DNA from: a virus
Taxonomy: Duplodnaviria; Caudoviricetes
Strand: one strand, 5' to 3'
Length of the DNA stretch: 64,000 nucleotides
Virus record (IMG/VR): IMGVR_UViG_3300023108_000002
The translations under genes and the position numbers were made by a program. Shown here one piece after another: positions 3 through 32,032 of this stretch (positions are counted from its first letter, which is position 1; each line of letters starts with the position of its first letter). The notes beneath the pieces were generated by a model. It was not told the DNA's origin. It saw only the letters and a list, made by a program, of their open reading frames with translations, and did no database searches.

Positions 3-2315
3 ACTGGTTGGTATAAGATTGCTACAGTACAGAATGACTCACCAACAGCAATCACTGGCGTTTCTGGATCTTATTCACTGGAAACTGACGGAACTCCTAC
101 TGTAATCACAGCGGTTTCTACAGACCCTGAAGGATTCCCTCTGACATGGAGTTATTCTACAAGTGGACTTGGAAGTATTGCTACAGTATCGCAAACAGAT
201 AATGTATTCACAATAACTCCTAGTACTGATGATGCCAATATTGGAACTTTTACTTTAACAATTAATGCAACTGATGGTGTTAATGGTGCGGTTAGTGCAA
301 ATACATCAATCACTCTACAATTTTATATTGCAAACAGTAATTATACAACCTTGTTAGCAACAGCAGTAGATACATCAGACAACAACAATATAACCGATAG
401 TTCAGTTAACAACCATACGATCACAGTTAATGGTGATGCCATCGCTGGTACGTTTAGTCCGTATAGACATGGTGGATACAGTGCTTATTTTGATGGTGTA
501 GATTCTAGACTTTTCATACCAAACAATGAATTAGAAATAACTACACAAGATTTCACAATTGAAGCATGGATAAATTTTGAAATAGGTCTTATTACTATTC
601 AAGTTGCAAGTAATGGCGAGTGGCTTACAGGAGATAATGTAGGTTATAGTTTCAGAATTCAAACTTCTGGGAAAATTCAGCTTTCAGGTTCTGTCGGCGT
701 TTGGAACTCATCATCAATCTTTTACACTTCTACGAATTCCGTGCCAAGTAATGAATGGGCTCATATTGCTATATGCAGAGAATCTGGAGTTATCAGTTCG
801 TATATAAATGGTATTAAAGATCCAACAACTGCAAATTATTCTTCTTCACTAAATCAACTTGGAGATAACGATGGAACCGCTAATGTTGGGTATTCTTATG
901 TTGGCGCATATATTGCAGACAATACTGTGACTGGGGTGCCCACAGGATATATGGCTGATTTTCATTTTAAATTAGGCTCAGCAAAATATAATTCTAATTT
1001 TGATGTTCCAACAGAAAGATTAACAGCTGAAGCTGGAACCACTATATTATTATTTAACGACAACACAATAAAAGATAACTCTACAAATTCATTTACTGTA
1101 ACGCCTTTAGGGGGTATAAGTTTACCGCCTAAAGGGCCCTTTGACAATTTACAGTACTCAACAGGAATACACGGTGGTTCTGTTTACTTTGATGGGTCTG
1201 GGGATTATTTAAGTGTTCCTGACGATGCTTCGCTAGATTTAGGTACAGGCGACTTTACTTTAGAAGCTTGGGTTCGTATGGATAGTACATCAGGTAATAG
1301 AATAATTTTTGAAAGATATACTTCTGGAAATAATGGAAGCTTCCAATTGTACTATAGAGGTACTGGCAACTCTATAGCTTTCTGGACTGTGGCCGACGGT
1401 GTTATTGCTCAAGATCCAAGTTCTTCTACTATTAAAGTAGGCTTTTGGCACCATATAGTTGCTACTAGAGAGAGTGGTACTTTAAAATTATATGTCGATG
1501 GTTCTCAAGTAGCATCTGCTTCATGCACAACAAATTTTGATAGCACGTTATCTTTAACGGTTGGTGCACAGGTAAGTACTGGAACAAATTACTTTGGCGG
1601 TTATATATCTGATTGCCGGATAGTTAAAGGAACTGCTGTTTACACATCAAATTTCACTCCACCAACTGCTCCTCTTACTGCTATTACAAACACTTCATTA
1701 CTTCTTTCAGGAACAGACGCTTCAGTCATTGATAAATCCCAGACTAATAATCTCCAGCTTGTTGGAAACACTACTGGATCAACCACTCAGGCTAAGTTTG
1801 CTAATACTAAGTCAATGTATTTTGATGGAAGCGGTGATTATGTAAGTATTGCAAGCAATCCGGCATTTGGTTTTGGCACTGGTGATTTTACAATAGAGTT
1901 TTGGACTTATTGGGGTGGTACATTAAATACAGGAAATGGTGGCGCTTTTGTAGGACTCAGATCAGCTGTGGCAGCAGAGGCACTCGTTGTCTACTTAAGC
2001 ACATCAGGTGAAATTATGTTTTATGATGGTCCTGCAAATGTAGAGGTTGGTTCTGGAGTTACTATAACCCAAGAATGGACACATATTGCCCTTACTAGAG
2101 AGAGCGGATTATGGAGAATATTTGTTAATGGAACACTCGGCGCAACAAGAAATAGCAGTACCGATTTAGGTAGTTCGAAGCCTTGCCGAATAGGTCAAGC
2201 CGTAAATGGTACGACAACTTCGTATCACGGATATATTCAAGATTTAAGAGTCACTAAAGGTCTTGCAAGATACACCGCAAACTTTACACCGCCAACAGAA
2301 CCACTAAAAGGATAA
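3..2315 (+). CDS. LamG/concanavalin-A-like repeat virion fibre/adhesin protein (5'-truncated)
   Basis: The frame of the 351..2315 ORF stays open back to position 3 (TGWYKIATVQNDSP...TDPEGFPLTWS..., cadherin/Ig-like). Three LamG-type repeats follow (YFDG(S)GDY...GTGDFT(I/L)E(A/F)W; two end in FTPPT(A/E)PL). Confidence 0.8.
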   Translation, partial: TGWYKIATVQNDSPTAITGVSGSYSLETDGTPTVITAVSTDPEGFPLTWSYSTSGLGSIATVSQTDNVFTITPSTDDANIGTFTLTINATDGVNGAVSANTSITLQFYIANSNYTTLLATAVDTSDNNNITDSSVNNHTITVNGDAIAGTFSPYRHGGYSAYFDGVDSRLFIPNNELEITTQDFTIEAWINFEIGLITIQVASNGEWLTGDNVGYSFRIQTSGKIQLSGSVGVWNSSSIFYTSTNSVPSNEWAHIAICRESGVISSYINGIKDPTTANYSSSLNQLGDNDGTANVGYSYVGAYIADNTVTGVPTGYMADFHFKLGSAKYNSNFDVPTERLTAEAGTTILLFNDNTIKDNSTNSFTVTPLGGISLPPKGPFDNLQYSTGIHGGSVYFDGSGDYLSVPDDASLDLGTGDFTLEAWVRMDSTSGNRIIFERYTSGNNGSFQLYYRGTGNSIAFWTVADGVIAQDPSSSTIKVGFWHHIVATRESGTLKLYVDGSQVASASCTTNFDSTLSLTVGAQVSTGTNYFGGYISDCRIVKGTAVYTSNFTPPTAPLTAITNTSLLLSGTDASVIDKSQTNNLQLVGNTTGSTTQAKFANTKSMYFDGSGDYVSIASNPAFGFGTGDFTIEFWTYWGGTLNTGNGGAFVGLRSAVAAEALVVYLSTSGEIMFYDGPANVEVGSGVTITQEWTHIALTRESGLWRIFVNGTLGATRNSSTDLGSSKPCRIGQAVNGTTTSYHGYIQDLRVTKGLARYTANFTPPTEPLKG

Positions 2316-19305: not shown

Positions 19306-20324
19306 AAATTGCACTGATTACGGACACTCACTTCGGCGCTAGAGGTGACTCCACACTTTTCCATGACTATTTTATGGAATTTTATGATAATGTATTTTTT
19401 CCTTACTTGGAAAAGAATAATATTAAGACTGTAATTCATCTTGGAGATGTTACAGACCGAAGAAAGTTTATCAACTATAATATTCTTGATGGCTTACGAA
19501 GTGGATTTATAAAGAAGATTAAAGACTATGACTCTTATTTTATTATTGGTAATCATGATGTGTATTATAAAAACACAAATCGTATTAACTCTATGGAGCA
19601 ACTTTTCGGGGATGATTTCAAGACTTATACAACGGCCACTACTCTTAATTTTGATGGGACTGACATTTGTTTTATTCCTTGGATAAATTCTGAGAATTAT
19701 GATGAAACTCTAAAACACATAAAGAAAACCAAAGCAAAAATTGCGTTAGGACATTTAGAACTGAATGGTTTTGAAATGATGCGTGGTATCAAGTGTGAAG
19801 CTGGTATGTCTATTGAACACTTTAAAAAATTTGATTTGACTTGTTCTGGACATTTCCATCATAAAAGCAATCAAGGAGAAATTCATTATTTGGGAGCCCC
19901 ATATGAATTATTTTGGAATGATTGTGATGATCCTAAAGGATTTCATATTTTAGATACGGGCTCAATGGAATTGCAGTTTGTTCAAAACCCACATCAAATG
20001 TTTCATAAGATTTATTATGATGAAAATAAAAAATATGATTTGTCAAAATATGAAAACAAATATGTAAAAATTATTGTTAAAAATAAAAGATCTCAATATA
20101 AGTTCGATACATTTGTTGACTCTTTATATAAGAAAGATGTTGCTGATTTATCTATTGTCGATGAAACAGATTTTCAGTTTGAAGAACAAAGTGATGTAGA
20201 CACTACAAAAGACACTATGTCTCTTCTTACAAGTTATATCGATAATTATGAGATTGATGTTGACAAGAACAAACTAAAACAGATTATGCAAGATTTATAT
20301 GTCTCTGCTTTGAGAGGTGATTGA
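19302..20324 (+). CDS. gp47: recombination endonuclease subunit gp47 (Mre11/SbcD-like)
   Basis: ITDTHFG, HLGD, GNHD, GHLE, SGHFH metallophosphoesterase motifs. Confidence 0.96.
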   Translation: MKIALITDTHFGARGDSTLFHDYFMEFYDNVFFPYLEKNNIKTVIHLGDVTDRRKFINYNILDGLRSGFIKKIKDYDSYFIIGNHDVYYKNTNRINSMEQLFGDDFKTYTTATTLNFDGTDICFIPWINSENYDETLKHIKKTKAKIALGHLELNGFEMMRGIKCEAGMSIEHFKKFDLTCSGHFHHKSNQGEIHYLGAPYELFWNDCDDPKGFHILDTGSMELQFVQNPHQMFHKIYYDENKKYDLSKYENKYVKIIVKNKRSQYKFDTFVDSLYKKDVADLSIVDETDFQFEEQSDVDTTKDTMSLLTSYIDNYEIDVDKNKLKQIMQDLYVSALRGD

Positions 20325-22039
20325 TGATTGAGTTTAAAACTATTAAATGGAAGAACTTTCTTTCCACTGGTAATTATTTTACAGAAGTGCAACTAAACCG
20401 TTCATCTTCTACTCTTATTGTTGGTGAGAATGGAGCAGGAAAATCTACCATTTTGGATGCATTGACATTTGGTTTGTTTGGAAAATCTTTTAGAAAAATT
20501 AATAAACCACAGCTTATAAACTCTATAAACAATAAAGATGCTTTGATTGAGATTACCTTTAAAATTGGTAAGAATGATTACTTGGTGCGCCGCGGTATCA
20601 AACCCAATATTTTTGAAATATGGGTAAATGGTAAAATGTTAGACCAAGATTCAAAAATTCGTGATAGCCAGATTTATTTGGAAGAAAACATTCTCAAACT
20701 GAATTATAAGTCATTTACTCAAACTGTTATTTTGGGTAGTGCTACTTTTGTTCCTTTCATGCAACTTTCTGCAATCGATAGAAGAGAAATTATTGAAGAT
20801 ATTTTGGATATAAAAATCTTTTCTGCAATGAATGAAATTCTAAAAGCAAAAATGGCTGCATTGAAAGAAACAATGACAGAAAATGAAAAAAACCGTGAAG
20901 TCCAAGATTATAAGATTGAACTTCAAGAAAGAAATATTGAAGATGCAAAGACGACAAAGAAAACTGCGATTAATACTTTTAAGAAAAAGATAAAAGAAAA
21001 GAAGGCTGAACAGAAACAGTGTATTGACAAAAATACAGAATTGCATGAACAAATATCAAATTTATTGGAAAAGATTATACATGAAAGTAAAATATCTGAT
21101 AGAAAGAAAAAACTTGAACGTCTAGAAACTAAACTCTCAAATAATGCAGAAAAAATACAAAACGACATCTCATGGTTTGAAGGCAATGATGTTTGTCCAT
21201 CATGCCAACAAGATATTAATGAAGATCATAAGAATTGTATTGTGGAAGAGAAGGATAAGAAAAAGGAAGAAGTTTTGACAGCTGTTCAATCTTTGTCTGA
21301 TGAATTGATTGAGATTGATTCTGAATTACATTATATTGAAGAAACCAAAACATCTATCACAAATCTTAATAATGTAGTTAGTTCTAATAATGATAAACAT
21401 CAATATCTACAAAAAAATATTGATGAACTTGAGGCTGAAATAGAAGATGCGGAAAATAATAATACAAGCGTTTCTAAATTAGAAAAGGAATTAAAAGAGT
21501 TTAAAAAGATTTCCAAAGAGTTGGACAATGAACGCAAAACTCTTTCCGAAACAAAAAACTATCATGTGGTTGCATCACAGTTTTTGAAGGACACTGGTGT
21601 AAAAACTTCTATTATAAAATACTATTTGCCAATAATGAACAAGTTAGTAAATAAGTATCTACAAGAAATGGATTTCTATATTAACTTCACAATGGATGAA
21701 AAGTTTAATGAGAATATTAAATCCAGAGGCAGAGAAGGATTTACATATAGTTCTTTTAGTGAAGGAGAGAAGATGAGAATTGACCTTGCTCTCTTGTTTA
21801 CTTGGAGAGAGATTGCTCGAATGAAGAACAGTGTCAACACAAATCTTCTGATTCTTGATGAGGTGTTTGATAGTTCTTTGGATGCGACTGGTACAGACGA
21901 GTTTTTGAAGTTGTTGAACACATTAGGCGGCAACAATGTCTTTGTGATTTCACATAAAGGAGATATTCTATATGATAAGTTTCACAGTGTGATTAAATTT
22001 GAAAAAGTAAAAAACTTTAGCCAAATTGAAAAAAATTGA
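20324..22039 (+). CDS. gp46: recombination endonuclease subunit gp46 (Rad50/SbcC-like)
   Basis: GENGAGKST, CPSC zinc hook, FSEGEK signature, LILDEVFDS, ISH. Confidence 0.97.
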   Translation: MIEFKTIKWKNFLSTGNYFTEVQLNRSSSTLIVGENGAGKSTILDALTFGLFGKSFRKINKPQLINSINNKDALIEITFKIGKNDYLVRRGIKPNIFEIWVNGKMLDQDSKIRDSQIYLEENILKLNYKSFTQTVILGSATFVPFMQLSAIDRREIIEDILDIKIFSAMNEILKAKMAALKETMTENEKNREVQDYKIELQERNIEDAKTTKKTAINTFKKKIKEKKAEQKQCIDKNTELHEQISNLLEKIIHESKISDRKKKLERLETKLSNNAEKIQNDISWFEGNDVCPSCQQDINEDHKNCIVEEKDKKKEEVLTAVQSLSDELIEIDSELHYIEETKTSITNLNNVVSSNNDKHQYLQKNIDELEAEIEDAENNNTSVSKLEKELKEFKKISKELDNERKTLSETKNYHVVASQFLKDTGVKTSIIKYYLPIMNKLVNKYLQEMDFYINFTMDEKFNENIKSRGREGFTYSSFSEGEKMRIDLALLFTWREIARMKNSVNTNLLILDEVFDSSLDATGTDEFLKLLNTLGGNNVFVISHKGDILYDKFHSVIKFEKVKNFSQIEKN

Positions 22040-22049
22040 AAAAAAACTA

Positions 22050-22079
22050 TTGACGAACCATGCAGTAATGGTATATACT
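22050..22079 (+). promoter_or_regulatory. sigma70-type early promoter heading the DNA-modification operon
   Basis: TTGACG followed by TGGTATATACT at 16-18 nt spacing; upstream A-tracts. Confidence 0.7.
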
Positions 22080-22121: not shown

Positions 22122-23531
22122 ATGAATGAAGATGAAATAATTAATATTATCACAAATAGTAGTTTTCAAGATTTACAAAAACTTAGGGTGGACTCTGACC
22201 ACATATCACTTATTGAATTACCAGACATTTATGGTGCTCACCTATATTGCACTTTCATAAATTCTGGAGAGACAATGGATAGATATTTTGGGTGGCATAA
22301 AGGTGAGTTTAATGGTACATACTATGGTTCGCCAGTTAAACATTCAAAAAAGTTCTGGTCAGATATGCGAAAGTATCCTAGTTTAACTTTATGTTTTAAT
22401 GTTGGAACTCCAAGAGATATGAATGTGAGGGAGGGTAAAATACTGAAGGCTATCGATGCAAAGTCTAATGAAAAGTTCTTCAATGAGAGCAATGGTGGTG
22501 GTGCATTAACTAAAGGTCAAAAATCAATTACTGCATTAGATAATATTGTTTATAACTTAGAAAAAAATGTATATCCAATTCAAAAAGTAGATAAACATAA
22601 ACTCTATGCTATACAACCACACCAAGTAAGAGAAGTAATGGAAATACCTAATAAGGTGCAATCTATTCTTAATCATATACTAGATACAAAAGGTAGATGG
22701 TTGGATGGAAATTTTCATTACGTTTTAATTCTTAAAGATTTCTATGGTAAAGATAAACATCTTAGGATAGGTAGTTTTCACACACTAAAAGCTTGTATGA
22801 AAACAGATTTTGTTGGTGAATTAGATGCTGTCTTTATACCGAAAAAAGATTGGATTAATTTAGACGAAACTGAAATTAAAGATTTAGGACATACAGATAA
22901 CAAAAGAGATGATAAGGTAAATGATTCTGTAAGTTTATCAGAGGCTATATCAAATGCCGTTTCTTTTATTAGAAATAATAATATTGAAGACCATAAAGAC
23001 CAAAGTGTAAAAGATAAATTCATGCGTTGGGGATTTACTAAAACTGAATGGGAAGCAACTATTAGAAAAACTTTACGAAATACACTAAATGATAGTAAAG
23101 CAAAAAATGCAATACCACCCAATCATATTAAAAAAAGCTGGACTGAAAAAGAAAAGTCTCAGATGATTGAAAGACATACAGACGAGAATACTTTTGTTTT
23201 TATTTTATCCACAGCTTGGTGGTCAAATAGATGGGTAGGTTTTGACGCACTAATGAATATTGTAAAGAATGAGGAAGCATTTAAAAAAGATTATTGGAAA
23301 ATATTCTGGTTAAATGAATCAGACACAGCGTTTTTAGATTGGAATAAGATAAAAACTAAAAAAGATGAAGAAGGTAATGTGGTTTTAAAACCAACAAGAA
23401 AAACTAATATTGAACATGATTTACAAATTTTGTTTTCAAAGTTTGCTGAAGATATTAGACCTATTCTTATTTTTGAAGATTTACCATATTCAGAACCTAA
23501 CGAAATTAAAAATGATAAAAAAGTATCTTGA
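22122..23531 (+). CDS. hypothetical protein: GIY-YIG(Seg)-like N-terminal domain plus ParB/Srx-like central domain
   Basis: LYC...YFGWH...YYGS...REGKIL...KFFNESNGG resembles Seg-type GIY-YIG. QVRE...IGSFHT resembles a ParB-like fold. ATG at 22122 follows GAGG and the promoter; the ORF-finder start at 22026 lies upstream of the promoter. Confidence 0.5.
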   Translation: MNEDEIINIITNSSFQDLQKLRVDSDHISLIELPDIYGAHLYCTFINSGETMDRYFGWHKGEFNGTYYGSPVKHSKKFWSDMRKYPSLTLCFNVGTPRDMNVREGKILKAIDAKSNEKFFNESNGGGALTKGQKSITALDNIVYNLEKNVYPIQKVDKHKLYAIQPHQVREVMEIPNKVQSILNHILDTKGRWLDGNFHYVLILKDFYGKDKHLRIGSFHTLKACMKTDFVGELDAVFIPKKDWINLDETEIKDLGHTDNKRDDKVNDSVSLSEAISNAVSFIRNNNIEDHKDQSVKDKFMRWGFTKTEWEATIRKTLRNTLNDSKAKNAIPPNHIKKSWTEKEKSQMIERHTDENTFVFILSTAWWSNRWVGFDALMNIVKNEEAFKKDYWKIFWLNESDTAFLDWNKIKTKKDEEGNVVLKPTRKTNIEHDLQILFSKFAEDIRPILIFEDLPYSEPNEIKNDKKVS

Positions 23532-24372
23532 AAAACATATTAAAGATAATGTGTTAGATGAAGAAGTTAGTTTACTATTAAGTGGTGGTCTTGATTCTAT
23601 ATCTGTTGGTATTTCTGCTGAACTAGTTGGGAAGAAAGTAAACGCATATAGTTTTTATCTTGAAGGTGTTCCTTCATATGACTTTGCAATGGCTGCTAAT
23701 ATTGCATCACAAAGAGGTTGGAATTTTACTCCAGTAGTTGTTCCTACTACAAATCTTAATGAAGATTGGTTTAGATTAGTTGATTTGGGTTGTAGAAAGA
23801 AAACTCATTTTGAGTGTGTATTTCCTTTCCTATATGTTTATCCAAAAATAAAAGAAAAGTATGTTCTTACTGGTTGGGGGGCGGATGGATACTTTGGACC
23901 AAGTAAAAAAGCTATGATGCGATATTCTAGTTATAGAAATAAAAAAAACTATGTTAAATATTGTAAAGAACACAATCAAAAAAGATTGAACTGGAACGAA
24001 TTCAGACTTGAATATCTTGATGGAGACTGTGCTGGTTACAAAGAACACACAACCCTTGCGGAAAAACATGATAAGATACACATAGCACCATATAAAGATA
24101 GTAAAGATATTAGAAAAGAATTGATGAATAAGAGTTGGACAGAGTTAAATACACCCAGACAAAAAGAAATTATAAGAAAAGACTTTACAATACTAAAAAA
24201 GTATGGTAATATAAAGCCACATATAAATTTACACCTCGGTTCTGGTATAGATAAATTGTTTGAAACTTTTTTGAAAGACTCGACAATTAATTTCAATAAT
24301 AGAAAAAGAATAATGGATGTTTGTAAAGATTGGTATAAAAATCCGAATAGTTTGAGAAGGTATAATATATGA
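23512..24372 (+). CDS. asparagine-synthetase-like (PP-loop) ATP-dependent amide ligase lacking a glutaminase domain; CmoY-like
   Basis: LLLSGGLDS PP-loop and VLTGWGADGYFG (cf. AsnB TGEGADE.FG). 286 aa from ATG 23512, overlapping the previous stop. Confidence 0.75.
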   Translation: MIKKYLEKHIKDNVLDEEVSLLLSGGLDSISVGISAELVGKKVNAYSFYLEGVPSYDFAMAANIASQRGWNFTPVVVPTTNLNEDWFRLVDLGCRKKTHFECVFPFLYVYPKIKEKYVLTGWGADGYFGPSKKAMMRYSSYRNKKNYVKYCKEHNQKRLNWNEFRLEYLDGDCAGYKEHTTLAEKHDKIHIAPYKDSKDIRKELMNKSWTELNTPRQKEIIRKDFTILKKYGNIKPHINLHLGSGIDKLFETFLKDSTINFNNRKRIMDVCKDWYKNPNSLRRYNI

Positions 24373-25565
24373 GTTATACACCATATAATTTACAAGATGT
24401 TTATGATGCATCTGAACAGAACAAATTTAAAGTGATTTCAACTTTTGCCGGTGGTGGTGGATCTTCCACTGGCTATCGTCTTGCTGGTGGTAAGGTTCTT
24501 GCAGTAAATGAGTTTGTAGAAGAGGCATGTAATACCTATAAAGAAAACTATCCAGAGACACCTATTCTGCCTGGCGATATTAAAGAATTGACTGGGCAAC
24601 ATTTCTTGGATGCAGCTGGAGTAAAAGTTGGGGAGATAGATATTCTGGATGGTTCTCCGCCATGTTCTGCGTTTTCTGTGGCAGGCAAACTATCTCATAA
24701 TAGTATTGAAACTGAATACTTAGATTTTGATGGTAATGTTATGACACGCAAAGAAAGTGGTAAACATTCTGATGGATGGGGTCAAACTAAAAAGTATTCT
24801 GATGGAAAGATAGTTGAAAATATTGAAGATTTGTTTTTTGATTTTCTGAGAATTGCTGATGAAATAAAACCAAAAGTAATCATTGCAGAAAATGTTAAGG
24901 GATTGACTGTTGGAGAAGCAAAAAACTATCTTAATCAAATACTCAATAGATTCGAGGAAATTGGATATAATATTTCGTATCAAGTTTTGGATAGTAGATA
25001 TTTTGGAGTTTCGCAGACTCGAACCAGATGTATTTTTATTGGAGTAAGACAGGACATTGCCGATCAAGTTGGCTTGAACTTTATGACAATTCAAAATGTT
25101 TTTCCAACTCCAGATTTGAAAACAATTCCTCTGAAAGATGCTTTGATTGGTTTAGAATATGATGATGAAGAAATTTCTTATCTTACTGAAAAGTTTTCTA
25201 ATACTGCATATTGGAAACAAACTGGTAGTATAATGCCCGTTGATCCAGATAAAGTTCTAACAGGAGGCGATTATCACCCGAAAGGACACCACTTTAACTT
25301 GAAAAGAGTATCACAGTATGCTCCAGCACCGACCTTAACCGCTATGGGGAGTGCTGATACTACTGCTGGTGCATTCCACTGGGCAGAACCTAGAAAGTTG
25401 ACCCTCGGCGAGCTGAAGCGCATTATGTCACTTCCAGATGACTTTAAACTTACTGGAAAATGGAATCAAAAAGCAGAAAGAATTGGAAGGATGGTTCCGC
25501 CACTGATGATGAAAAGAATTGCAGAATCTGTATATAAAAATGTTTTGGAGAAATATAATGGCTGA
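24369..25565 (+). CDS. C5-cytosine DNA methyltransferase-fold enzyme, predicted carboxymethyltransferase (CmoX-like)
   Basis: Motif I FAGGGG, motif IV SPPC (Cys99), motif VI ENV, motif VIII QTRTR. Motif X reads IGRMVPP instead of the canonical IGNAVPP. Confidence 0.85.
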   Translation: MSYTPYNLQDVYDASEQNKFKVISTFAGGGGSSTGYRLAGGKVLAVNEFVEEACNTYKENYPETPILPGDIKELTGQHFLDAAGVKVGEIDILDGSPPCSAFSVAGKLSHNSIETEYLDFDGNVMTRKESGKHSDGWGQTKKYSDGKIVENIEDLFFDFLRIADEIKPKVIIAENVKGLTVGEAKNYLNQILNRFEEIGYNISYQVLDSRYFGVSQTRTRCIFIGVRQDIADQVGLNFMTIQNVFPTPDLKTIPLKDALIGLEYDDEEISYLTEKFSNTAYWKQTGSIMPVDPDKVLTGGDYHPKGHHFNLKRVSQYAPAPTLTAMGSADTTAGAFHWAEPRKLTLGELKRIMSLPDDFKLTGKWNQKAERIGRMVPPLMMKRIAESVYKNVLEKYNG

Positions 25566-26256
25566 TTTCACATTTGCACACCGCGAAGAAGGTTTTGATG
25601 AACATATTGATAAAAGTATTAGAGGTTATGGAGATTTGTTGGATGATGTAATTTCTCTATCAAGATACTTTGTGGAAGATGGTACTAATGTTTATGATAT
25701 TGGATGTTCAACTGGTAAACTGACTCAACGAATGTTGGAGGCAAATCAGGATTTTTGTTATGATGCAAATTATATTGGTATTGAAGTTGCAAATGGATTT
25801 TATGATGATATGATAAAAAGACAGGAGCATATCAGATCAATACACCCTTGGGTCCGTGTTGATTTTAGACATGAAGATGTAAGAGACACTGAATTTGAAA
25901 ATGCCTCTTTAATTACTTCAATATTTACTTTGCAGTTTATGTCAAAAATTGATCGGCGATTTACTATTCAAAGAATTCATGATGGATTGAATGAAGGTGG
26001 CGGTTTTATTTTTGCAGAAAAAACTATTTGTCAAAATGCAAATTTTCAAGACATGCTCACATTTAATTATTATGATTTCAAAAGAAAATCTTTTGATACA
26101 GAAGATATTATGAATAAAGAAAGAACTCTTAGAAACATGTTGAAACCAAACACTTGGCAAGAAATAAATGAAATGATGTGGGACGCAGGTTTTGAAGATG
26201 TCCAACCTTTCTGGAGAAATCATATGTTTGTTGGAGCAATTGCCATAAAAAAATAA
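25558..26256 (+). CDS. cmoA: carboxy-SAM synthase CmoA homolog
   Basis: F.F......FDEHIDKSIRGY, VYDIGCSTG, SIFTLQF, GGGFIFAEK and KERTLRNML follow the CmoA pattern. ATG at 25558 after GGAG. Confidence 0.8.
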   Translation: MADFTFAHREEGFDEHIDKSIRGYGDLLDDVISLSRYFVEDGTNVYDIGCSTGKLTQRMLEANQDFCYDANYIGIEVANGFYDDMIKRQEHIRSIHPWVRVDFRHEDVRDTEFENASLITSIFTLQFMSKIDRRFTIQRIHDGLNEGGGFIFAEKTICQNANFQDMLTFNYYDFKRKSFDTEDIMNKERTLRNMLKPNTWQEINEMMWDAGFEDVQPFWRNHMFVGAIAIKK

Positions 26257-26293: not shown

Positions 26294-26331
26294 GTAAATA
26301 TAAGTGATGATTCCTATGAAGGAAATATGTG

Positions 26332-28704
26332 ATGTCAAATGTTCTATTTACAAAGAACTCCAAAAGTCTCCTAGCCAAACTGATGGCAGAAGAAGACCTT
26401 ACGGTTCAACATCGTAAAGTTGAAACCGCGTTTTTTGACGTTGAAAAACGTCTATTAGTTGTACCAATTTGGAAAGATATGTCCGATAACCTTTATGACT
26501 TGTTTATGGGTCATGAAGTTGGACATGCTTTATATACTCCAGCGGATACAGAAGTTCTCCAAGAAGCAATCGACCGTTCCAACAAAGACTTTGTAAACGT
26601 AGTCGAAGATGCTCGTATTGAGAAAATGATGAAAATAAAATTCCCTGGCTTGCGGGCTCCTTTCTACAAAGGATATCAAGAGTTAAATGAGCGAGATTTC
26701 TTTGGGACAAATAATAAAGAAATTTCTACCTTTTCTTTCATTGACCGTATCAATCTGTTTTACAAATCTTCAATGAATGATTTTGAGTTTAACATGATAT
26801 TTTCAGAAGAAGAAAAACCTCTTGTGAAGAAAGTTGGAAAAACAGAAACTTTCGAAGAAGTTGCAGCTGTTGCAGAAGAGATTTACAACTTCATCAAAGA
26901 TAAAGTTCAAAATCGTCAAGAACAGAATTCCCAACAAAGTGGTGGTGAAGGTTCTGGTGAACAATCTCAAAATTCAGAAATGTCAGAACTAAAAGATGAC
27001 AATTCACACTCTTCTTCATCTTCTCAAACTGAAACTGAAAATGAAGAAGAAAATCAAACGGATGGTTCTGGTGATGGCGGTTCTTCTGATGATACAGGTG
27101 AAGATGAACAAAATTCACAAGAATCTGGTAGTTCTTCTAATTCTTCTGATGACGAATCTGATGGAGAAAATGGAAAATCTTATACATCAGCTGAAGAAGA
27201 ACAAAATGCAAATGATGTTGCATCATTGGGTGGTGGAAGTGGTTTCTCTGACCCTGATGAATTTTCCTCTAAAACTGACAATTCAATGTCAGAAAATATG
27301 TCACAAATGATTGATCGTATGGCAGATAATATTGAATATTACACATTATCTGATTTAAATCTGAAAGATCATGTGATAAGTCATGATATGATTCATGATG
27401 CAATCGATGCGGCCAAAACTTATTTTTACAATAACTCAGATTGGACTAGTTTTGCAAAAAATAATGTAGACAAGATTTCTCTTTACAAAAAAGTATTGAG
27501 TGATAACAACGCTACTATAAACTATCTTGTAAAAGAATTTGAAATGAAAAAATCTGCACAAGAATATGCAGCGAGTTATGAAACAAAATCTGGAAATCTG
27601 AATACCAGCAAAATTTGGAGTTACAAACTAAATGATGATATCTTCAAACGTAAATCGATTACTCCAGAAGGCAAAAATCATGGCATGGTAATGATGGTCG
27701 ATTGGTCGGGTTCTATGCACTCTATGTTATATAAGACCGTTGTTCAAACTGTTGTCCTTGCCACATTTTGTAAACGTGTTGGAATTCCTTTTGATGTTTA
27801 CAATTTCTCTGATCAAAACCGAGATTATGATGATGGTAAAAAGTTGTTTGCCGATAAAAAGAACGGTGTTTATAACAATCGGACATTTATCTATAATAAT
27901 GTTAAACTTCATCATGTTCTCAGCAGTTCAATGAAAAAATCAGAATTTATCAGGGCATGTAACAACTATCTGTTTTTGGCTTGGGGATTGAACAATTGTT
28001 ATGGATTGATGCGTTCTAACAAATTGCCTCATAATGTCGATCTTCAGCTTGGTGGAACTCCTCTAAATCAAAGTTTGATGATTCTTGACAAAGTTGTTCA
28101 TGAATTCAAACGGAAACATTCTGTAGAAAAAATGAACTTTGTTGTTTTGAGTGATGGTGCTGCCGGCGATACAATTGAGATAGTTGATGAAAATTCTGGT
28201 TGGCATCGTTCAGTTGCAGCAACCTGGCGGCATCATCCCAAAACTTCTGTGGTTTATCATGAGCGTTCAAAAAAGACTTTCGTTCATCAACAAGGTTATC
28301 GTTCTAAAAATAAAAATGCAAAAAATCCTACTGAGTTTCTTGTCGAAACAATGAAAGAAGTTCATGGTGCAAAATCGATTGGATTTTACATTATAGACCG
28401 TACTTATGATCTAAATAACGCAATTCGGGCATATGTATTTCGGGATCGTGATGGATACCATATGTATAATAACGAACTTTCAAAAGTTCGTTCAGAGTGT
28501 CGCAAAAATGGGTTTTATGCAGCAAAAGATTGTGGGTATGATGAATACTATATTCTTGATATGCGTACTCAAAATGAAGATAGTGAACTTGAAGTTGATG
28601 AAAATATGACAAAAGCAAAAATTGCCAAACAGTTTTCAAAATTCCAAGGTTCAAAGAAAACCAGTCGGCAAATGTTAAATAAATTTGTCGATATCGTGAA
28701 GTAA
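26332..28704 (+). CDS. CobT-like protein: N-terminal HExxH metallopeptidase-like domain, acidic Ser/Gly linker, C-terminal VWA domain
   Basis: HEVGH...EDARIE; MIDAS VDWSGSM, GGTP, LSDG. Confidence 0.8.
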   Translation: MSNVLFTKNSKSLLAKLMAEEDLTVQHRKVETAFFDVEKRLLVVPIWKDMSDNLYDLFMGHEVGHALYTPADTEVLQEAIDRSNKDFVNVVEDARIEKMMKIKFPGLRAPFYKGYQELNERDFFGTNNKEISTFSFIDRINLFYKSSMNDFEFNMIFSEEEKPLVKKVGKTETFEEVAAVAEEIYNFIKDKVQNRQEQNSQQSGGEGSGEQSQNSEMSELKDDNSHSSSSSQTETENEEENQTDGSGDGGSSDDTGEDEQNSQESGSSSNSSDDESDGENGKSYTSAEEEQNANDVASLGGGSGFSDPDEFSSKTDNSMSENMSQMIDRMADNIEYYTLSDLNLKDHVISHDMIHDAIDAAKTYFYNNSDWTSFAKNNVDKISLYKKVLSDNNATINYLVKEFEMKKSAQEYAASYETKSGNLNTSKIWSYKLNDDIFKRKSITPEGKNHGMVMMVDWSGSMHSMLYKTVVQTVVLATFCKRVGIPFDVYNFSDQNRDYDDGKKLFADKKNGVYNNRTFIYNNVKLHHVLSSSMKKSEFIRACNNYLFLAWGLNNCYGLMRSNKLPHNVDLQLGGTPLNQSLMILDKVVHEFKRKHSVEKMNFVVLSDGAAGDTIEIVDENSGWHRSVAATWRHHPKTSVVYHERSKKTFVHQQGYRSKNKNAKNPTEFLVETMKEVHGAKSIGFYIIDRTYDLNNAIRAYVFRDRDGYHMYNNELSKVRSECRKNGFYAAKDCGYDEYYILDMRTQNEDSELEVDENMTKAKIAKQFSKFQGSKKTSRQMLNKFVDIVK

Positions 28705-28795: not shown

Positions 28796-29956
28796 ATGTG
28801 GAATAAAACGAAAAAAATTGAGTTTCTTACGAAACTCATGGCAGAAAGTGGTTCTGTTGTTTCCAAACAAGAAATCAAGTCGGCGGCTTCCGCTTTTGGT
28901 GAAGCAAGTCCACAATGGATGTGGAAACCAGAATTTCGAGCCGGACATGGTAAATATGATATTTCAAAATATGCAATGAAACTCACTGGTAATGTAGTCC
29001 AGATGAAACCAGTTGCACAAACAGTGACTGCTGTTCCTACTACAGTAGTTTTGCCTGAACGTCATATCGATTCTCTCGTTCCAGAGAAAGATCCTAACTT
29101 TGTGAAATTTGGATTTTACAATGATTTGAAAACTATCCTTCAATCAAAAATGTTTTATCCTGTTTTCATTACTGGTTTGTCTGGTAACGGTAAAACTTAT
29201 GGAACACAACAACTTTGTGCCCAACTAAATCGTGAATGTATCACGGTTCCTATTACAATCGAAACTGATGAATCTGACCTTCTTGGCGACAAAACTCTTG
29301 TTGATGGTAATGTTCTGTTTTCTCAGGGCCCTGTAATTGACGCAATGGAACGTGGCGCAGTTCTTATTCTTGATGAAGTTGACCTTGCATCAAATAAAAT
29401 TATGTGTTTGCAATCCATTATTGATGGTAAAGGTGTTTACCTCAAAAAAGATAATCGGTTTGTAAAACCAGCTCCCGGCTTTACTGTGATTGCTACAGCA
29501 AACACAAAAGGTAAAGGTTCTGATGATGGACGTTTCATTGGTACTAATGTAATGAACGAGGCGTTTCTTGAGCGTTTCAAAATTACATTTGAACAAGAAT
29601 ATCCCAATCAATCAGTTGAGAAAAAAATTCTCAGCAACCATCTGCAATCTTGCAAAGGTTCTGTTACTGATGAAGATGTGTCGGTGATTGAAAATCTTAC
29701 GGTTTGGGCATCTGCCATTCGTAAAACCTTTGAAGAGGGTGGGATTGATGAAATCATTTCGACTCGGCGTTTGGTTCACATTGTAGAAACATTCTCTATC
29801 TTTGGAAATGTTTTGAAGGCTGTTGAACTTTGTACAAATCGTTTTGATGATGATACGAAAGCATCATTTGTAGATCTATTTTCCAAAATTTATGGCGGAG
29901 AAGAAATCAATGAAACTGAAACTGAAGAAACATATGAAGAGGAAGTACCCTTTTGA
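28796..29956 (+). CDS. cobS: MoxR/CobS-like AAA+ ATPase
   Basis: Walker A GLSGNGKT, Walker B ILDEVD, ATANTKGKGSDDGRFIGTNVMNEAFLERF, ISTRRL. Confidence 0.88.
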   Translation: MWNKTKKIEFLTKLMAESGSVVSKQEIKSAASAFGEASPQWMWKPEFRAGHGKYDISKYAMKLTGNVVQMKPVAQTVTAVPTTVVLPERHIDSLVPEKDPNFVKFGFYNDLKTILQSKMFYPVFITGLSGNGKTYGTQQLCAQLNRECITVPITIETDESDLLGDKTLVDGNVLFSQGPVIDAMERGAVLILDEVDLASNKIMCLQSIIDGKGVYLKKDNRFVKPAPGFTVIATANTKGKGSDDGRFIGTNVMNEAFLERFKITFEQEYPNQSVEKKILSNHLQSCKGSVTDEDVSVIENLTVWASAIRKTFEEGGIDEIISTRRLVHIVETFSIFGNVLKAVELCTNRFDDDTKASFVDLFSKIYGGEEINETETEETYEEEVPF

Positions 29957-30258: not shown

Positions 30259-30394
30259 TAACTTGGATCGAGACTATAAAAAACTCAGCAAGGGCAGAAA
30301 AGAATATGTCAAAAAAATGGCATCAAAACAAAAACAAACTATTTCTAATTACTTGAATTCTAAATATGGAGAAATTGAAAATGAAATTGAGTGA
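30230..30394 (+). CDS. small basic hypothetical protein (54 aa; missing from the ORF track)
   Basis: GGAG RBS then MMSINLKHSDNLDRDYKKLSKGRKEYVKKMASK...EIE*. It fills the gap and overlaps both neighbours. Confidence 0.55.
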   Translation: MMSINLKHSDNLDRDYKKLSKGRKEYVKKMASKQKQTISNYLNSKYGEIENEIE

Positions 30395-31079
30395 GCAAAC
30401 GCAAAATATATTGAAGAATTATTCGACTATTAATCAGTCAATTTACTTGAAAAAAGGAAGTCGATTATCCACTATTTCTGTTATGAGAAACATTTTATCA
30501 GCAACTGATGTAAGTGAAGAATTTCCAGTAGATTTTTGCATTTATGATTTGGGAAAATTTCTAAATCTTTTGAAGATTTATCCAGAACTAGATTTTCATG
30601 ATAAGTTTGTCATGATGAGCAATGGAGCAAAGACATATAAATTTATGGCTGCCGAACCATCTATTATTGTCTATGTTGAGAATACCTTTGAATTAGAAGG
30701 AAGCGACAACAATCCAGAAGGATCGAAACCTTCGCCGGATTGGGATATTAATGTAAAGCTTCCAAATTCTACACTACATACTATCAATCAAGTGGCATCC
30801 ATTTCTGGACTTCCTGATTATTCATTGTCAACAAAAGACGATGGAGTTGTTTATTTTTGTGCATTGGATAAAAAAGATGATACATCCAATGTTGCTGAAG
30901 AACCAGTTGGTGAATCAAATGCAACATTTAATATGTACTTCCGTTCAGAAAACCTAAAGCTAATCGAAGGTGATTATGATGTAGGGATTTCTAAAAATAA
31001 AATCTCAACTTTCCGACACCAGAAATTGCCAATTCAATATTGGATTACACTTGAACAAGATTCGACTTATGGGGAGTAA
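30381..31079 (+). CDS. gp45: sliding clamp gp45
   Basis: MKLSEQT..ILKNYSTINQSI, EEFP..F.IYDL..FL, ENLKLI.GDY.V.IS, Y.I.LE.DS. Confidence 0.95.
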   Translation: MKLSEQTQNILKNYSTINQSIYLKKGSRLSTISVMRNILSATDVSEEFPVDFCIYDLGKFLNLLKIYPELDFHDKFVMMSNGAKTYKFMAAEPSIIVYVENTFELEGSDNNPEGSKPSPDWDINVKLPNSTLHTINQVASISGLPDYSLSTKDDGVVYFCALDKKDDTSNVAEEPVGESNATFNMYFRSENLKLIEGDYDVGISKNKISTFRHQKLPIQYWITLEQDSTYGE

Positions 31080-31081
31080 GT

Positions 31082-32032
31082 ATGGACAATTTTTTATGGG
31101 TAGAAAAATATCGTCCATCCGATATCGATAATTGTATTCTAACTGATGAACTAAAATCAACATTCAAAGAGTTTGTTGATACAGGAAGTTTACCCAATCT
31201 CCTATTGTCTGGCGGGCCAGGTGTTGGTAAAACAACTCTGGCTCGTGCCTTGTGCAATGAAATGAAAATGGACTATATCTTAATCAACGGTTCCGAAGAT
31301 AGTGGTATTGATGTTCTAAGAAATAAGATTCGAAACTATGCATCAACTGTAAGTTTTGATACTGGAAATAGTAAAGAATTTGGAAAGGTTATCATTTTAG
31401 ACGAAGCGGATTATCTAAATCCACAATCAACTCAGCCCGCTCTGCGTGGATTCATTGAAGAGTTTTCTGGTAATTGTAGATTTATTCTTACATGCAATTT
31501 CAAGAATCGTATCATTGAACCACTGCATAGTAGATGTTCTCTTGTAGAATTTAAAATCAAAAAATCCGACAAACCAAAATTGGCAGGAACTTTTTTCAAT
31601 AGAGTAAAAACTATTCTTGATAAAGAAAATATTTCTTATAAAGAAAAGGTGGTTGTGGAACTTGTAATGAAACATTTTCCAGATTGGAGAAGAGTCTTAA
31701 ATGAACTCCAGAGATATTCTGTTGGTGGTGAAATAGATGAAGGCCTTCTAACTGATGTGGGAGAGGTAAATATAAACAAACTCACATCGGCGATGAAGGA
31801 TAAGAATTTCACAGAGATTAGAGGATGGACAACTCAGAACTTGGATAATGATCCAAATACTTTATATAGAAAAATCTATGATGGACTGTATGAACACGCA
31901 GAACCATCTTCAATTCCTCAAGCAGTTGTGACTATTGCAGACTATTCATACAAGTCTGCATTTGTTGCCGATCAAGAAATAAATCTTGTGGCGTGTTTGA
32001 CAGAGTTGATGATGGAGTGTGATTGGAAATGA
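31082..32032 (+). CDS. gp44: clamp loader large subunit gp44
   Basis: LWVEKYRP, GGPGVGKTT, IILDEAD, CRFILTCN, SRC, FPDWRR. Confidence 0.97.
   Translation: MDNFLWVEKYRPSDIDNCILTDELKSTFKEFVDTGSLPNLLLSGGPGVGKTTLARALCNEMKMDYILINGSEDSGIDVLRNKIRNYASTVSFDTGNSKEFGKVIILDEADYLNPQSTQPALRGFIEEFSGNCRFILTCNFKNRIIEPLHSRCSLVEFKIKKSDKPKLAGTFFNRVKTILDKENISYKEKVVVELVMKHFPDWRRVLNELQRYSVGGEIDEGLLTDVGEVNINKLTSAMKDKNFTEIRGWTTQNLDNDPNTLYRKIYDGLYEHAEPSSIPQAVVTIADYSYKSAFVADQEINLVACLTELMMECDWK

Follow-up and report, generated by a model that had tools for sequence, protein, structure and literature searches.

The locus at positions 22122-26256 of the IMG/VR virus record IMGVR_UViG_3300023108_000002 (Duplodnaviria; Caudoviricetes) raises the question of whether its overlapping genes encode a pathway for hypermodification of phage DNA, and what the first of them contributes to it. 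The window, the whole stretch of 64,000 nucleotides (nt) that was analyzed, comes from a T4-like myophage of marine or salt-marsh origin that is uncultured and has approximately 34% G+C. In brief, the last three genes, cmoY, cmoX and cmoA, encode a predicted amide ligase, a predicted DNA carboxymethyltransferase and a predicted carboxy-S-adenosylmethionine synthase, respectively, and the first gene, open reading frame 1 (ORF1), encodes a protein with a GIY-YIG-like and a ParB-like fold. We suggest that the four genes form a cassette of the CmoA/CmoX/CmoY type that is expressed early and serves DNA hypermodification.

The CmoA-CmoX-CmoY system was characterized in the Synechococcus phage S-B43 by Yang et al. 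(Nat Commun 2025; PMC12783734), in line with the initial annotation of the window, which had named a similar trio in this phage. In S-B43, CmoA converts S-adenosylmethionine (SAM) and prephenate to carboxy-SAM (Cx-SAM). CmoX, a homolog of cytosine-C5 methyltransferases (C5-MTases), accepts only Cx-SAM and makes 5-carboxymethylcytosine (5cxmC) at GC sites, and CmoY ligates glycine to the carboxyl group using ATP; the glycine amide, 5gcxmC, was detected in the virion DNA (PMC12783734). In the crystal structure of the S-B43 enzyme, SpCmoX (8YF3), Arg350 touches the carboxylate of the cofactor, and the R350N variant is dead (PMC12783734).

We compared the proteins of the S-B43 locus with those of the window for identity and E-value. 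CmoA is 61% identical to its S-B43 counterpart SpCmoA (E 2e-107), CmoX 58% identical to SpCmoX (E 2e-165), and CmoY 41% identical to SpCmoY over 280 residues (BLASTP E 3e-73). Based on these identities and on the diagnostic residues described below, the cassette is filed under the published Cmo system, and judged by sequence its last three genes are clear orthologs of the S-B43 enzymes. Orthology, conserved motifs, folds and synteny are what we observe in this phage. The route first proposed for the window, from Cx-SAM via 5cxmC to an amide, matches the one shown experimentally in S-B43.

CmoX has the C5-MTase fold assigned to it initially: it matches Pfam DNA_methylase (PF00145) with an E-value of 5e-58 and the SpCmoX structure 8YF3 over residues 4-395 with an E-value of 9e-141. 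The motifs FAGGGG, SPPC (with Cys99), ENV, QTRTR and GRMVPP (with Arg374) are all present, and FAGGGG, ENV and QTRTR are invariant in the CmoX alignment. Ordinary C5-MTases have an Asn at the motif-X position. In CmoX this position is occupied by Arg374, as it is by Arg350 in SpCmoX, so that the carboxylate-binding Arg is kept. Yang et al. recognize CmoX by SPPC together with an Arg at the motif-X Asn position (PMC12783734), and the two occur together in 78 of 81 close CmoX homologs. CmoX is predicted to use Cx-SAM rather than SAM, given its conserved Arg and its identity of 58% to SpCmoX.

The cmoA product is best described by the CmoA family TIGR00740, which it matches with an E-value of 4e-34 across positions 13-239 of the 239 in the model; the next family follows at 2e-7. 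Its matches in the PDB are CmoA/YecO only (4GEK, 4IWN and 1IM8). These matches support the name CmoA given to it initially, and a grouping with generic class I methyltransferases was not seen. The contacts of Escherichia coli CmoA with its cofactor include Y39, D62, G64, S66, D89, D117, F137 and E164 (PMC3663124), and of these Y39, D62, G64, S66, D117, F137 and E164 are kept in the window protein. D89 is replaced by Glu, N132 by Ile and I118 by Val, and N90 has no clear counterpart. N90 and N132 are likewise not kept in SpCmoA, where N132 is replaced by Leu, and SpCmoA is active, with a kcat of 2.33 per second for Cx-SAM synthesis (PMC12783734).

CmoY matches Pfam Asn_synthase (PF00733) with an E-value of 1e-10 and phrog_26038 with an E-value of 3e-29, and a Pfam scan gave no match to a GATase or glutaminase domain. 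The PP-loop SGGLDS is kept; S24, G26, D28 and S29 are invariant among 24 homologs and G25 nearly so. Together with the orthology to SpCmoY, this bears out the initial description as a PP-loop, Asn-synthetase-like enzyme. Yang et al. used a threshold of 1e-56 in their ligase network (PMC12783734). The E-value of 3e-73 between CmoY and SpCmoY lies within this threshold of the glycine/alpha-amino-acid cluster, a rough comparison as database sizes differ, and this makes glycine our best guess for the amine. It had been suggested that the amine added by this phage could be new; on sequence grounds it is probably not.

We infer the chemistry, target site and amine for this phage as follows. CmoA would convert SAM and host prephenate to Cx-SAM. 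CmoX would then act on replicated DNA, flipping a cytosine out and attacking its C6 with Cys99, and would move the carboxymethyl group onto C5 while Arg374 holds the carboxylate of the cofactor, giving 5cxmC, probably at GpC sites. CmoY would adenylate the carboxyl group via its PP-loop and join it to an amine, most likely glycine, giving 5gcxmC. The expected outcome is phage DNA that resists restriction enzymes. We have little doubt that Cx-SAM and 5cxmC would be made; an amide of some kind very likely follows, and as a whole the cassette very probably works as a Cmo system. Glycine is the probable amine and GC sites are the likely target.

Some features of the cmoA product and of CmoX weigh against this assignment. 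The score of the cmoA product against TIGR00740, 118 bits, is under the NCBIfam equivalog cut-off of 193. Arg199 of E. coli CmoA, which forms a salt bridge to the carboxylate of Cx-SAM, aligns with Glu in the window protein and in all three phage CmoA proteins. An Arg is found near this position, at +4 (LRNML, common with SpCmoA) and, in the window protein only, at +1. The active SpCmoA has the same pattern, so the change of Arg199 to Glu need not count against function. In CmoX, the target-recognition (variable) region has small insertions relative to SpCmoX and is moderately conserved, and 17 amino acids (aa) are inserted after the motif of the catalytic Cys (residues approximately 106-122, positions 24684-24734). 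The latter insertion splits the close CmoX homologs into two length classes, 37 of 81 with it and 44 of 81 without. Because of the insertions and the differences in the variable region, GC specificity is not assured.

An end product different from that of S-B43, with CmoY joining another amine (a different amino acid, a polyamine or ammonia) or with a CmoX that recognizes a motif other than GC, is unlikely, and the same differences feed this alternative. In addition to the variable region and catalytic-loop insertion of CmoX, CmoY is just 41% identical to SpCmoY and carries a 16-aa insertion relative to it, which leaves room for a different amine, and several ligase clusters with differing pockets have been predicted (PMC12783734). 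The E-value between CmoY and SpCmoY, within the cluster threshold, speaks against it, as does the lack of a glutaminase domain that could supply ammonia. In the window, GpC is neither avoided nor enriched (odds ratio 1.01), GpC sites hold approximately 17% of the cytosines, and window statistics gave no clear sign of an avoidance of GpC or of short palindromes tied to the mark.

That the methyltransferase-fold enzyme makes plain 5-methylcytosine from SAM, with the CmoA homolog serving the tRNA modification uridine-5-oxyacetic acid (cmo5U) or draining SAM, is highly improbable: the C5-MTase fold and all catalytic motifs are there, and bacterial CmoA homologs do serve tRNA modification, but the motif-X Asn is changed to Arg exactly as in the Cx-SAM specific SpCmoX, a role in tRNA modification is unlikely since the window holds no CmoB homolog (best tblastn E 0.32), and cmoA overlaps cmoX, the two occurring together in 69 of 80 related IMG/VR loci, these being the best of more than 550 stretches that encode a CmoX relative (tblastn E <= 1e-3), with CmoX at least 73% identical.

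Table 1. Features of the cassette and its surroundings (window positions, or residues for the domains of the ORF1 protein).
Feature	Position	Strand	Description
gp46	20321-22039		Upstream neighbor of the cassette
Promoter candidate	22050-22079	+	Sigma-70-like, TTGACG-N18-TATACT, in the 82-nt gap downstream of gp46
ORF1	22122-23531	+	469 aa; GIY-YIG-like, ParB/sulfiredoxin (Srx) N-domain, helix-turn-helix (HTH)-like bundle, alpha/beta C-terminal domain
ORF1, GIY-YIG-like domain	residues ~38-123		Similar to the GIY-YIG catalytic domain of I-TevI (1LN0), Z 5.2, 81 of 92 residues
ORF1, ParB/Srx N-domain	residues ~137-265		pNOB8 ParB-N (5K5D), Z 8.1 (162 residues); PadC, KorB and Srx, Z 7.1-7.7
ORF1, three-helix HTH-like bundle	residues 271-330		ParB_N + HTH_ParB clusters (AFDB, Atlas)
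ORF1, alpha/beta C-terminal domain	residues 336-460		No clear match
cmoY	23512-24372	+	286 aa; predicted PP-loop amide ligase without glutaminase domain
cmoX	24369-25565	+	398 aa; C5-MTase fold, predicted DNA cytosine-C5 carboxymethyltransferase
cmoA	25558-26256	+	232 aa; predicted carboxy-SAM synthase
791-aa protein	26329-28704		phrog_459 (E 1e-195), directly downstream of the cassette
AAA_5 ATPase	28796-29956		After the 791-aa protein
gp45-like clamp	30366-31079		Past the 791-aa protein and the AAA_5 ATPase
gp44 clamp loader	31082-32032		After the gp45-like clamp

The coordinates are given in Table 1. All four genes are on the plus strand behind a promoter-like site and, in line with the initial annotation, each overlaps the next, ORF1 and cmoY by 20 nt, cmoY and cmoX by 4 nt, and cmoX and cmoA by 8 nt. 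Shine-Dalgarno-like sequences are found upstream of ORF1 (AGAGGA), cmoX (GAGAAGG) and cmoA (GGAGA). None is found upstream of cmoY, which suggests that cmoY is coupled to ORF1 and probably depends on it. The sequence of the promoter proposed at position 22050 exists; it matches the consensus at only 10 of 12 positions, and in this AT-rich DNA there are 59 such matches where 56.5 are expected by chance. We consider it plausible solely because of its intergenic place in the gap after gp46.

The ORF1 protein gave no match in Pfam, NCBIfam or PHROG, even domain by domain at an E-value of 5. A profile search of 1.84 billion cluster representatives returned a family of 218, mostly of 400-480 aa. We aligned 85 family members (mean column identity 19%), and the AlphaFold (AF2) model built with this alignment has a predicted local distance difference test score (pLDDT) of 91.8. 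Its predicted domains are listed in Table 1, and Foldseek matched it to Noc and ParB (E 1e-4, probability 1.0). The initial description of the first gene as nuclease/ParB-like thus appears right at the level of the modeled fold. Invariant in the 85 sequences are Y42, Y55, G57, Y67, E104, N121 and N260, and Q168 and R170 are conserved in 99% of them. In brief, Y42, Y55, G57, E104 and N121 fit the GIY-YIG pattern with the usual spacing, and Q168-V-R170 and N260 correspond to Q-P-R and E-N-x-x-R in ParB CTPases. Weak Pfam matches to SegE_GIY-YIG or GIY-YIG were found in 6 of the 85 members. PF02195 (ParBc) matched neither ORF1 at an E-value of 5 nor any of the 85, so in the model ORF1 has the ParB fold and is no recognizable PF02195 member. 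The family profile found nothing among PDB sequences (best E 0.09), and a match of ORF1 alone to Crl in the PDB was discarded as chance-level (E 0.04). It should be noted that ParBc (PF02195) neighbors of Cmo loci have been noted without explanation (PMC12783734).

We scored the ORFs of the 80 related loci with custom profiles. The most common arrangement was cmoX-cmoA (32 loci), followed by cmoY-cmoX-cmoA (22), cmoX alone (11), cmoX-cmoA...cmoY (8) and ORF1-cmoY-cmoX-cmoA (5); cmoY-cmoX and cmoX-cmoA-ORF1-cmoY were each found once. Besides the window, eight further arrangements have ORF1 immediately 5' of cmoY (L005, L006/L007, L023, L024, L025, L031, L041 and L092, where L006/L007 is one arrangement on two contigs), and the adjacency is also found in the permuted loci L009 and L063. 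In every Cmo context that contains it, ORF1 immediately precedes cmoY, the permuted arrangements included. With a narrow ORF1 alignment, the related-locus search gave one locus, and three other contigs with ORF1 homologs were too short for context.

The position upstream of cmoY is a variable slot. In other related loci (L012-L081) the genes that fill it belong to at least 10 unrelated families (290-540 aa), nearly all without Pfam matches. One of these loci, L013, otherwise shares the gene order of the window (gp47-gp46-X-cmoY-cmoX-cmoA-791 aa-AAA). Comparison of the ORF1 profile with the slot proteins of L013, L030, L054 and L046 (hhalign) gave no significant match, with probabilities below 1%. 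The L013 slot protein was under chance level in an Atlas feature search and has only 3 close homologs.

Outside the Cmo cassettes, more distant ORF1 relatives are found beside other DNA modification genes. In the Methylophilales phage Melnitz (L003:3691-7230) the order is C5-MTase, Tet_JBP oxygenase and ORF1 homolog. The Melnitz C5-MTase is 39% identical to CmoX and keeps SPPC, whereas its motif-X position is a Leu (GLMV) and not the Arg of CmoX. Relatives in L101 and L112-L114 are beside a TET-associated glycosyltransferase (TAGT) and a DruA-like protein, and one in L118 is beside a glycosyltransferase. L010 (L010:32-2725) encodes, in this order, a member of the ORF1 family, a protein of 136 aa and a Mom-family protein (PF25680, E 1e-49), which links the ORF1 family to adenine modification too. 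The 313-361-aa genes beside distant ORF1 homologs were not recognized by jackhmmer with the Melnitz Tet_JBP protein.

The related loci also hold variants of the ligase and of the enzymes around it. In two of them (L022:5387-6292 and L027:1074-1979) the slot upstream of cmoY encodes a second Asn_synthase-like ligase (PF00733, E 3e-9), and such tandem ligases might make a longer or different amide. Two cmoX-cmoA loci (L055:942-2363 and L087:563-1987) encode a 474-aa fusion of GATase and Asn_synthase; GATase-fused ligases form a second, uncharacterized cluster predicted to take ammonia from glutamine (PMC12783734). In L039 (12651-14000) a Tet/JBP-like dioxygenase, matching the Tet_JBP protein of Melnitz in jackhmmer with an E-value of 2e-70, is encoded approximately 0.8 kb downstream of cmoX-cmoA, and this locus has no cmoY. 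The dioxygenase might process carboxymethylcytosine further, or act on thymine.

What ORF1 contributes can be stated with less confidence than the pathway. We tentatively favor a role as helper or activator, in which a DNA-bound ParB-type protein, also carrying a GIY-YIG-like nicking domain, would assist the second, on-DNA step. This role is suggested by the steady link of the family to enzymes that modify bases within DNA and by analogy with phage ParB homologs that activate their cognate 5-methylpyrimidine dioxygenases (5mYOX) specifically on double-stranded DNA (O'Toole et al., PNAS 2026; PMC13229309).

A number of observations weigh against the helper role. SpCmoY is active without an ORF1-type protein. 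Nearly identical CmoY proteins occur with and without ORF1, and unrelated genes are found in the same slot; in L013, with a CmoX that is 94% identical, the slot gene (L013:5345-6592) encodes 410 aa unrelated to ORF1. On the CmoY tree the presence of ORF1 is scattered, with at least 6 changes, which does not improve on shuffled labels (48 of 500). In the protein itself, G-x-H-T takes the place of the GERR arginine box found in ParB CTPases, and the GIY-YIG-like domain lacks the conserved, canonical catalytic Arg (H59 is conserved in 72% and Y67 in 100% of the family). A predicted complex of ORF1 and CmoY had a median score of 0.16 against a mark of 0.32, which is no evidence either way. Since close relatives fill the slot with unrelated genes, and S-B43 is also without ORF1, ORF1 is a conserved but dispensable accessory.

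It is unlikely, though by no means far-fetched, that ORF1 is instead a nuclease discriminating between modified and unmodified DNA, a restriction-like partner of the Cmo mark. The ParB/Srx module would read the state of the DNA and the GIY-YIG domain would cut the unmodified DNA of the host or of rival phages, 5cxmC or its amide protecting the phage's own DNA. T4 EndoII, which acts on cytosine-containing DNA (dC-DNA), offers a likeness, as do GmrSD-type enzymes, in which a nuclease is paired with a ParB-like domain. We keep this explanation because the perfect conservation of the GIY-YIG-type residues in a family as divergent as this one speaks for a functional active site. Its members are also found beside DNA-modifying enzymes of several chemistries, as the logic of restriction-modification predicts, and GmrS has a ParB/Srx fold (PMC4619093). 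However, ORF1 has no canonical GIY-YIG Arg and matches I-TevI only modestly, cleavage of DNA by ORF1 is putative, and many Cmo cassettes are without the gene. Leads from the Atlas feature search point the same way as the nuclease explanation (DndB, 0.85; a viral cluster of GmrSD_N and GIY-YIG, 0.80), but are weak and under the tool's own reliability level.

That ORF1 acts as a selfish, free-standing homing endonuclease with a GIY-YIG domain, like the T4 Seg proteins, occupying a variable slot without a role in the pathway, is improbable: the GIY-YIG-like domain, the HTH-like DNA-binding part and the patchy distribution in a slot that even the syntenic L013 fills differently keep this explanation alive, but the family recurs beside modification genes (Cmo, methyltransferase (MT)/TET, TAGT, glycosyltransferase and Mom) in unrelated contexts, its place directly upstream of cmoY is kept in the permuted loci, and the large ParB/Srx core with conserved Q168, R170 and N260 is no Seg feature.

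It is conceivable, if rather doubtful, that the ORF1 family is a general, unnamed component of post-replicative phage DNA hypermodification in Cmo, MT/TET, TAGT/glycosyl and Mom cassettes. If so, the family would act as a ParB-type activator that opens double-stranded DNA to the second-step enzymes, or would destroy unmodified DNA, and in this phage the role of ORF1 would be to tune the amide mark on 5cxmC or to exploit it.

The genes around the cassette are those of a T4-like phage. The gp46-like gene is preceded farther upstream by gp55- and gp47-like genes, and gp46 and the DNA polymerase share only approximately 50% identity with their counterparts in cyanomyoviruses and in Melnitz. The cassette had been placed between gp46 and gp45. 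The upstream border stands; downstream, the phrog_459 protein and the AAA_5 ATPase come first and the gp45-like clamp later. The phrog_459 protein has a long low-complexity stretch, acidic and Ser-rich, and the pair that it forms with the AAA_5 ATPase, placed between the cassette and gp45/gp44, resembles CobT/CobS. Its listed start is a GTG at 26329, and the ATG right after it at 26332 may be the true start. No tRNA genes were found in the window.

The stretch is present in salt-marsh and marine metagenomes, and an independent marine metagenome covers it contig by contig. Identical short contigs in three salt-marsh RNA libraries indicate presence and are no proof of transcription. In one marine metagenome (run X10) a contig links position 23518 to 25607 via 37 other letters, omitting cmoY and cmoX; it has only 24 letters on one side and may come from another organism, and is weak evidence.

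As the pathway is already published (December 2025), the cassette adds, by its sequence, a member to the known Cmo system. The window mainly confirms how common the system is, with a CmoX relative encoded in more than 550 IMG/VR stretches, and extends it to a low-G+C marine/salt-marsh myophage whose DNA polymerase is approximately 50% identical to those of cyanophages. What remains useful beyond this is a GIY-YIG/ParB-fold family unseen by standard profile libraries, and the variable slot before cmoY. An ORF1-type protein is found beside four chemically different DNA modification systems, and its role would bear on the control or exploitation of post-replicative hypermodification. It would also be relevant to the use of CmoX and CmoY as labeling tools on double-stranded DNA.

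The closest known system is that of S-B43. Both phages are T4-like (Kyanoviridae-like), and both have the three enzymes, SPPC, the motif-X Arg, the PP-loop and a ligase without glutaminase domain, and lack CmoB. The gene order is cmoA-cmoY-cmoX in S-B43 and ORF1-cmoY-cmoX-cmoA here, and the cassette is located after the primase-helicase region in S-B43 and after gp46 here. The window differs further by the insertions in the catalytic loop of CmoX and in CmoY, by the 469-aa GIY-YIG/ParB-like gene that S-B43 does not have, and by its low G+C content. Unlike the GATase-fused ligases of L055 and L087, CmoY and SpCmoY are both without a GATase domain. An engineered counterpart of CmoX is M.MpeI N374K, a C5-MTase that can use Cx-SAM owing to a basic residue in place of the motif-X Asn (cited in PMC12783734). 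The position and the basic character of the residue are shared; M.MpeI N374K is artificial, has a Lys and targets CG, whereas CmoX has a natural Arg and presumably targets GC.

For ORF1, the GIY-YIG nucleases of T4-like phages (I-TevI, Seg and EndoII/DenA) share the Y...Y-x-G...E...N pattern and, for I-TevI, the fold. They differ in that the catalytic Arg is not conserved in ORF1 and in that the ORF1 family is tied to modification genes. The DNA-binding modules of these nucleases are other, usual ones, whereas ORF1 is fused to a ParB/Srx module. Systems of the GmrSD/SspE/BrxU type, which combine a DUF262 ParB/Srx-like nucleoside triphosphatase with a nuclease, likewise couple a ParB/Srx-fold module to a nuclease where the modification status of DNA matters (PMC4619093). 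Domain order and nuclease type are different in ORF1, there is no significant sequence match, and those systems belong to host defense whereas ORF1 is encoded by a phage beside modifying enzymes. The ParB activators of dioxygenases lack the GIY-YIG-like N-terminal domain and the HTH-like bundle of ORF1 and have a different C-terminal domain, and ORF1 in turn is without the GERR arginines and without a PF02195 match. What the two have in common is a ParB N-domain fold encoded beside post-replicative base-modifying enzymes, the Q-x-R and Asn of the CTP site (Q168, R170 and N260 in ORF1) and, for the ORF1-family member of Melnitz, a Tet_JBP gene next door.

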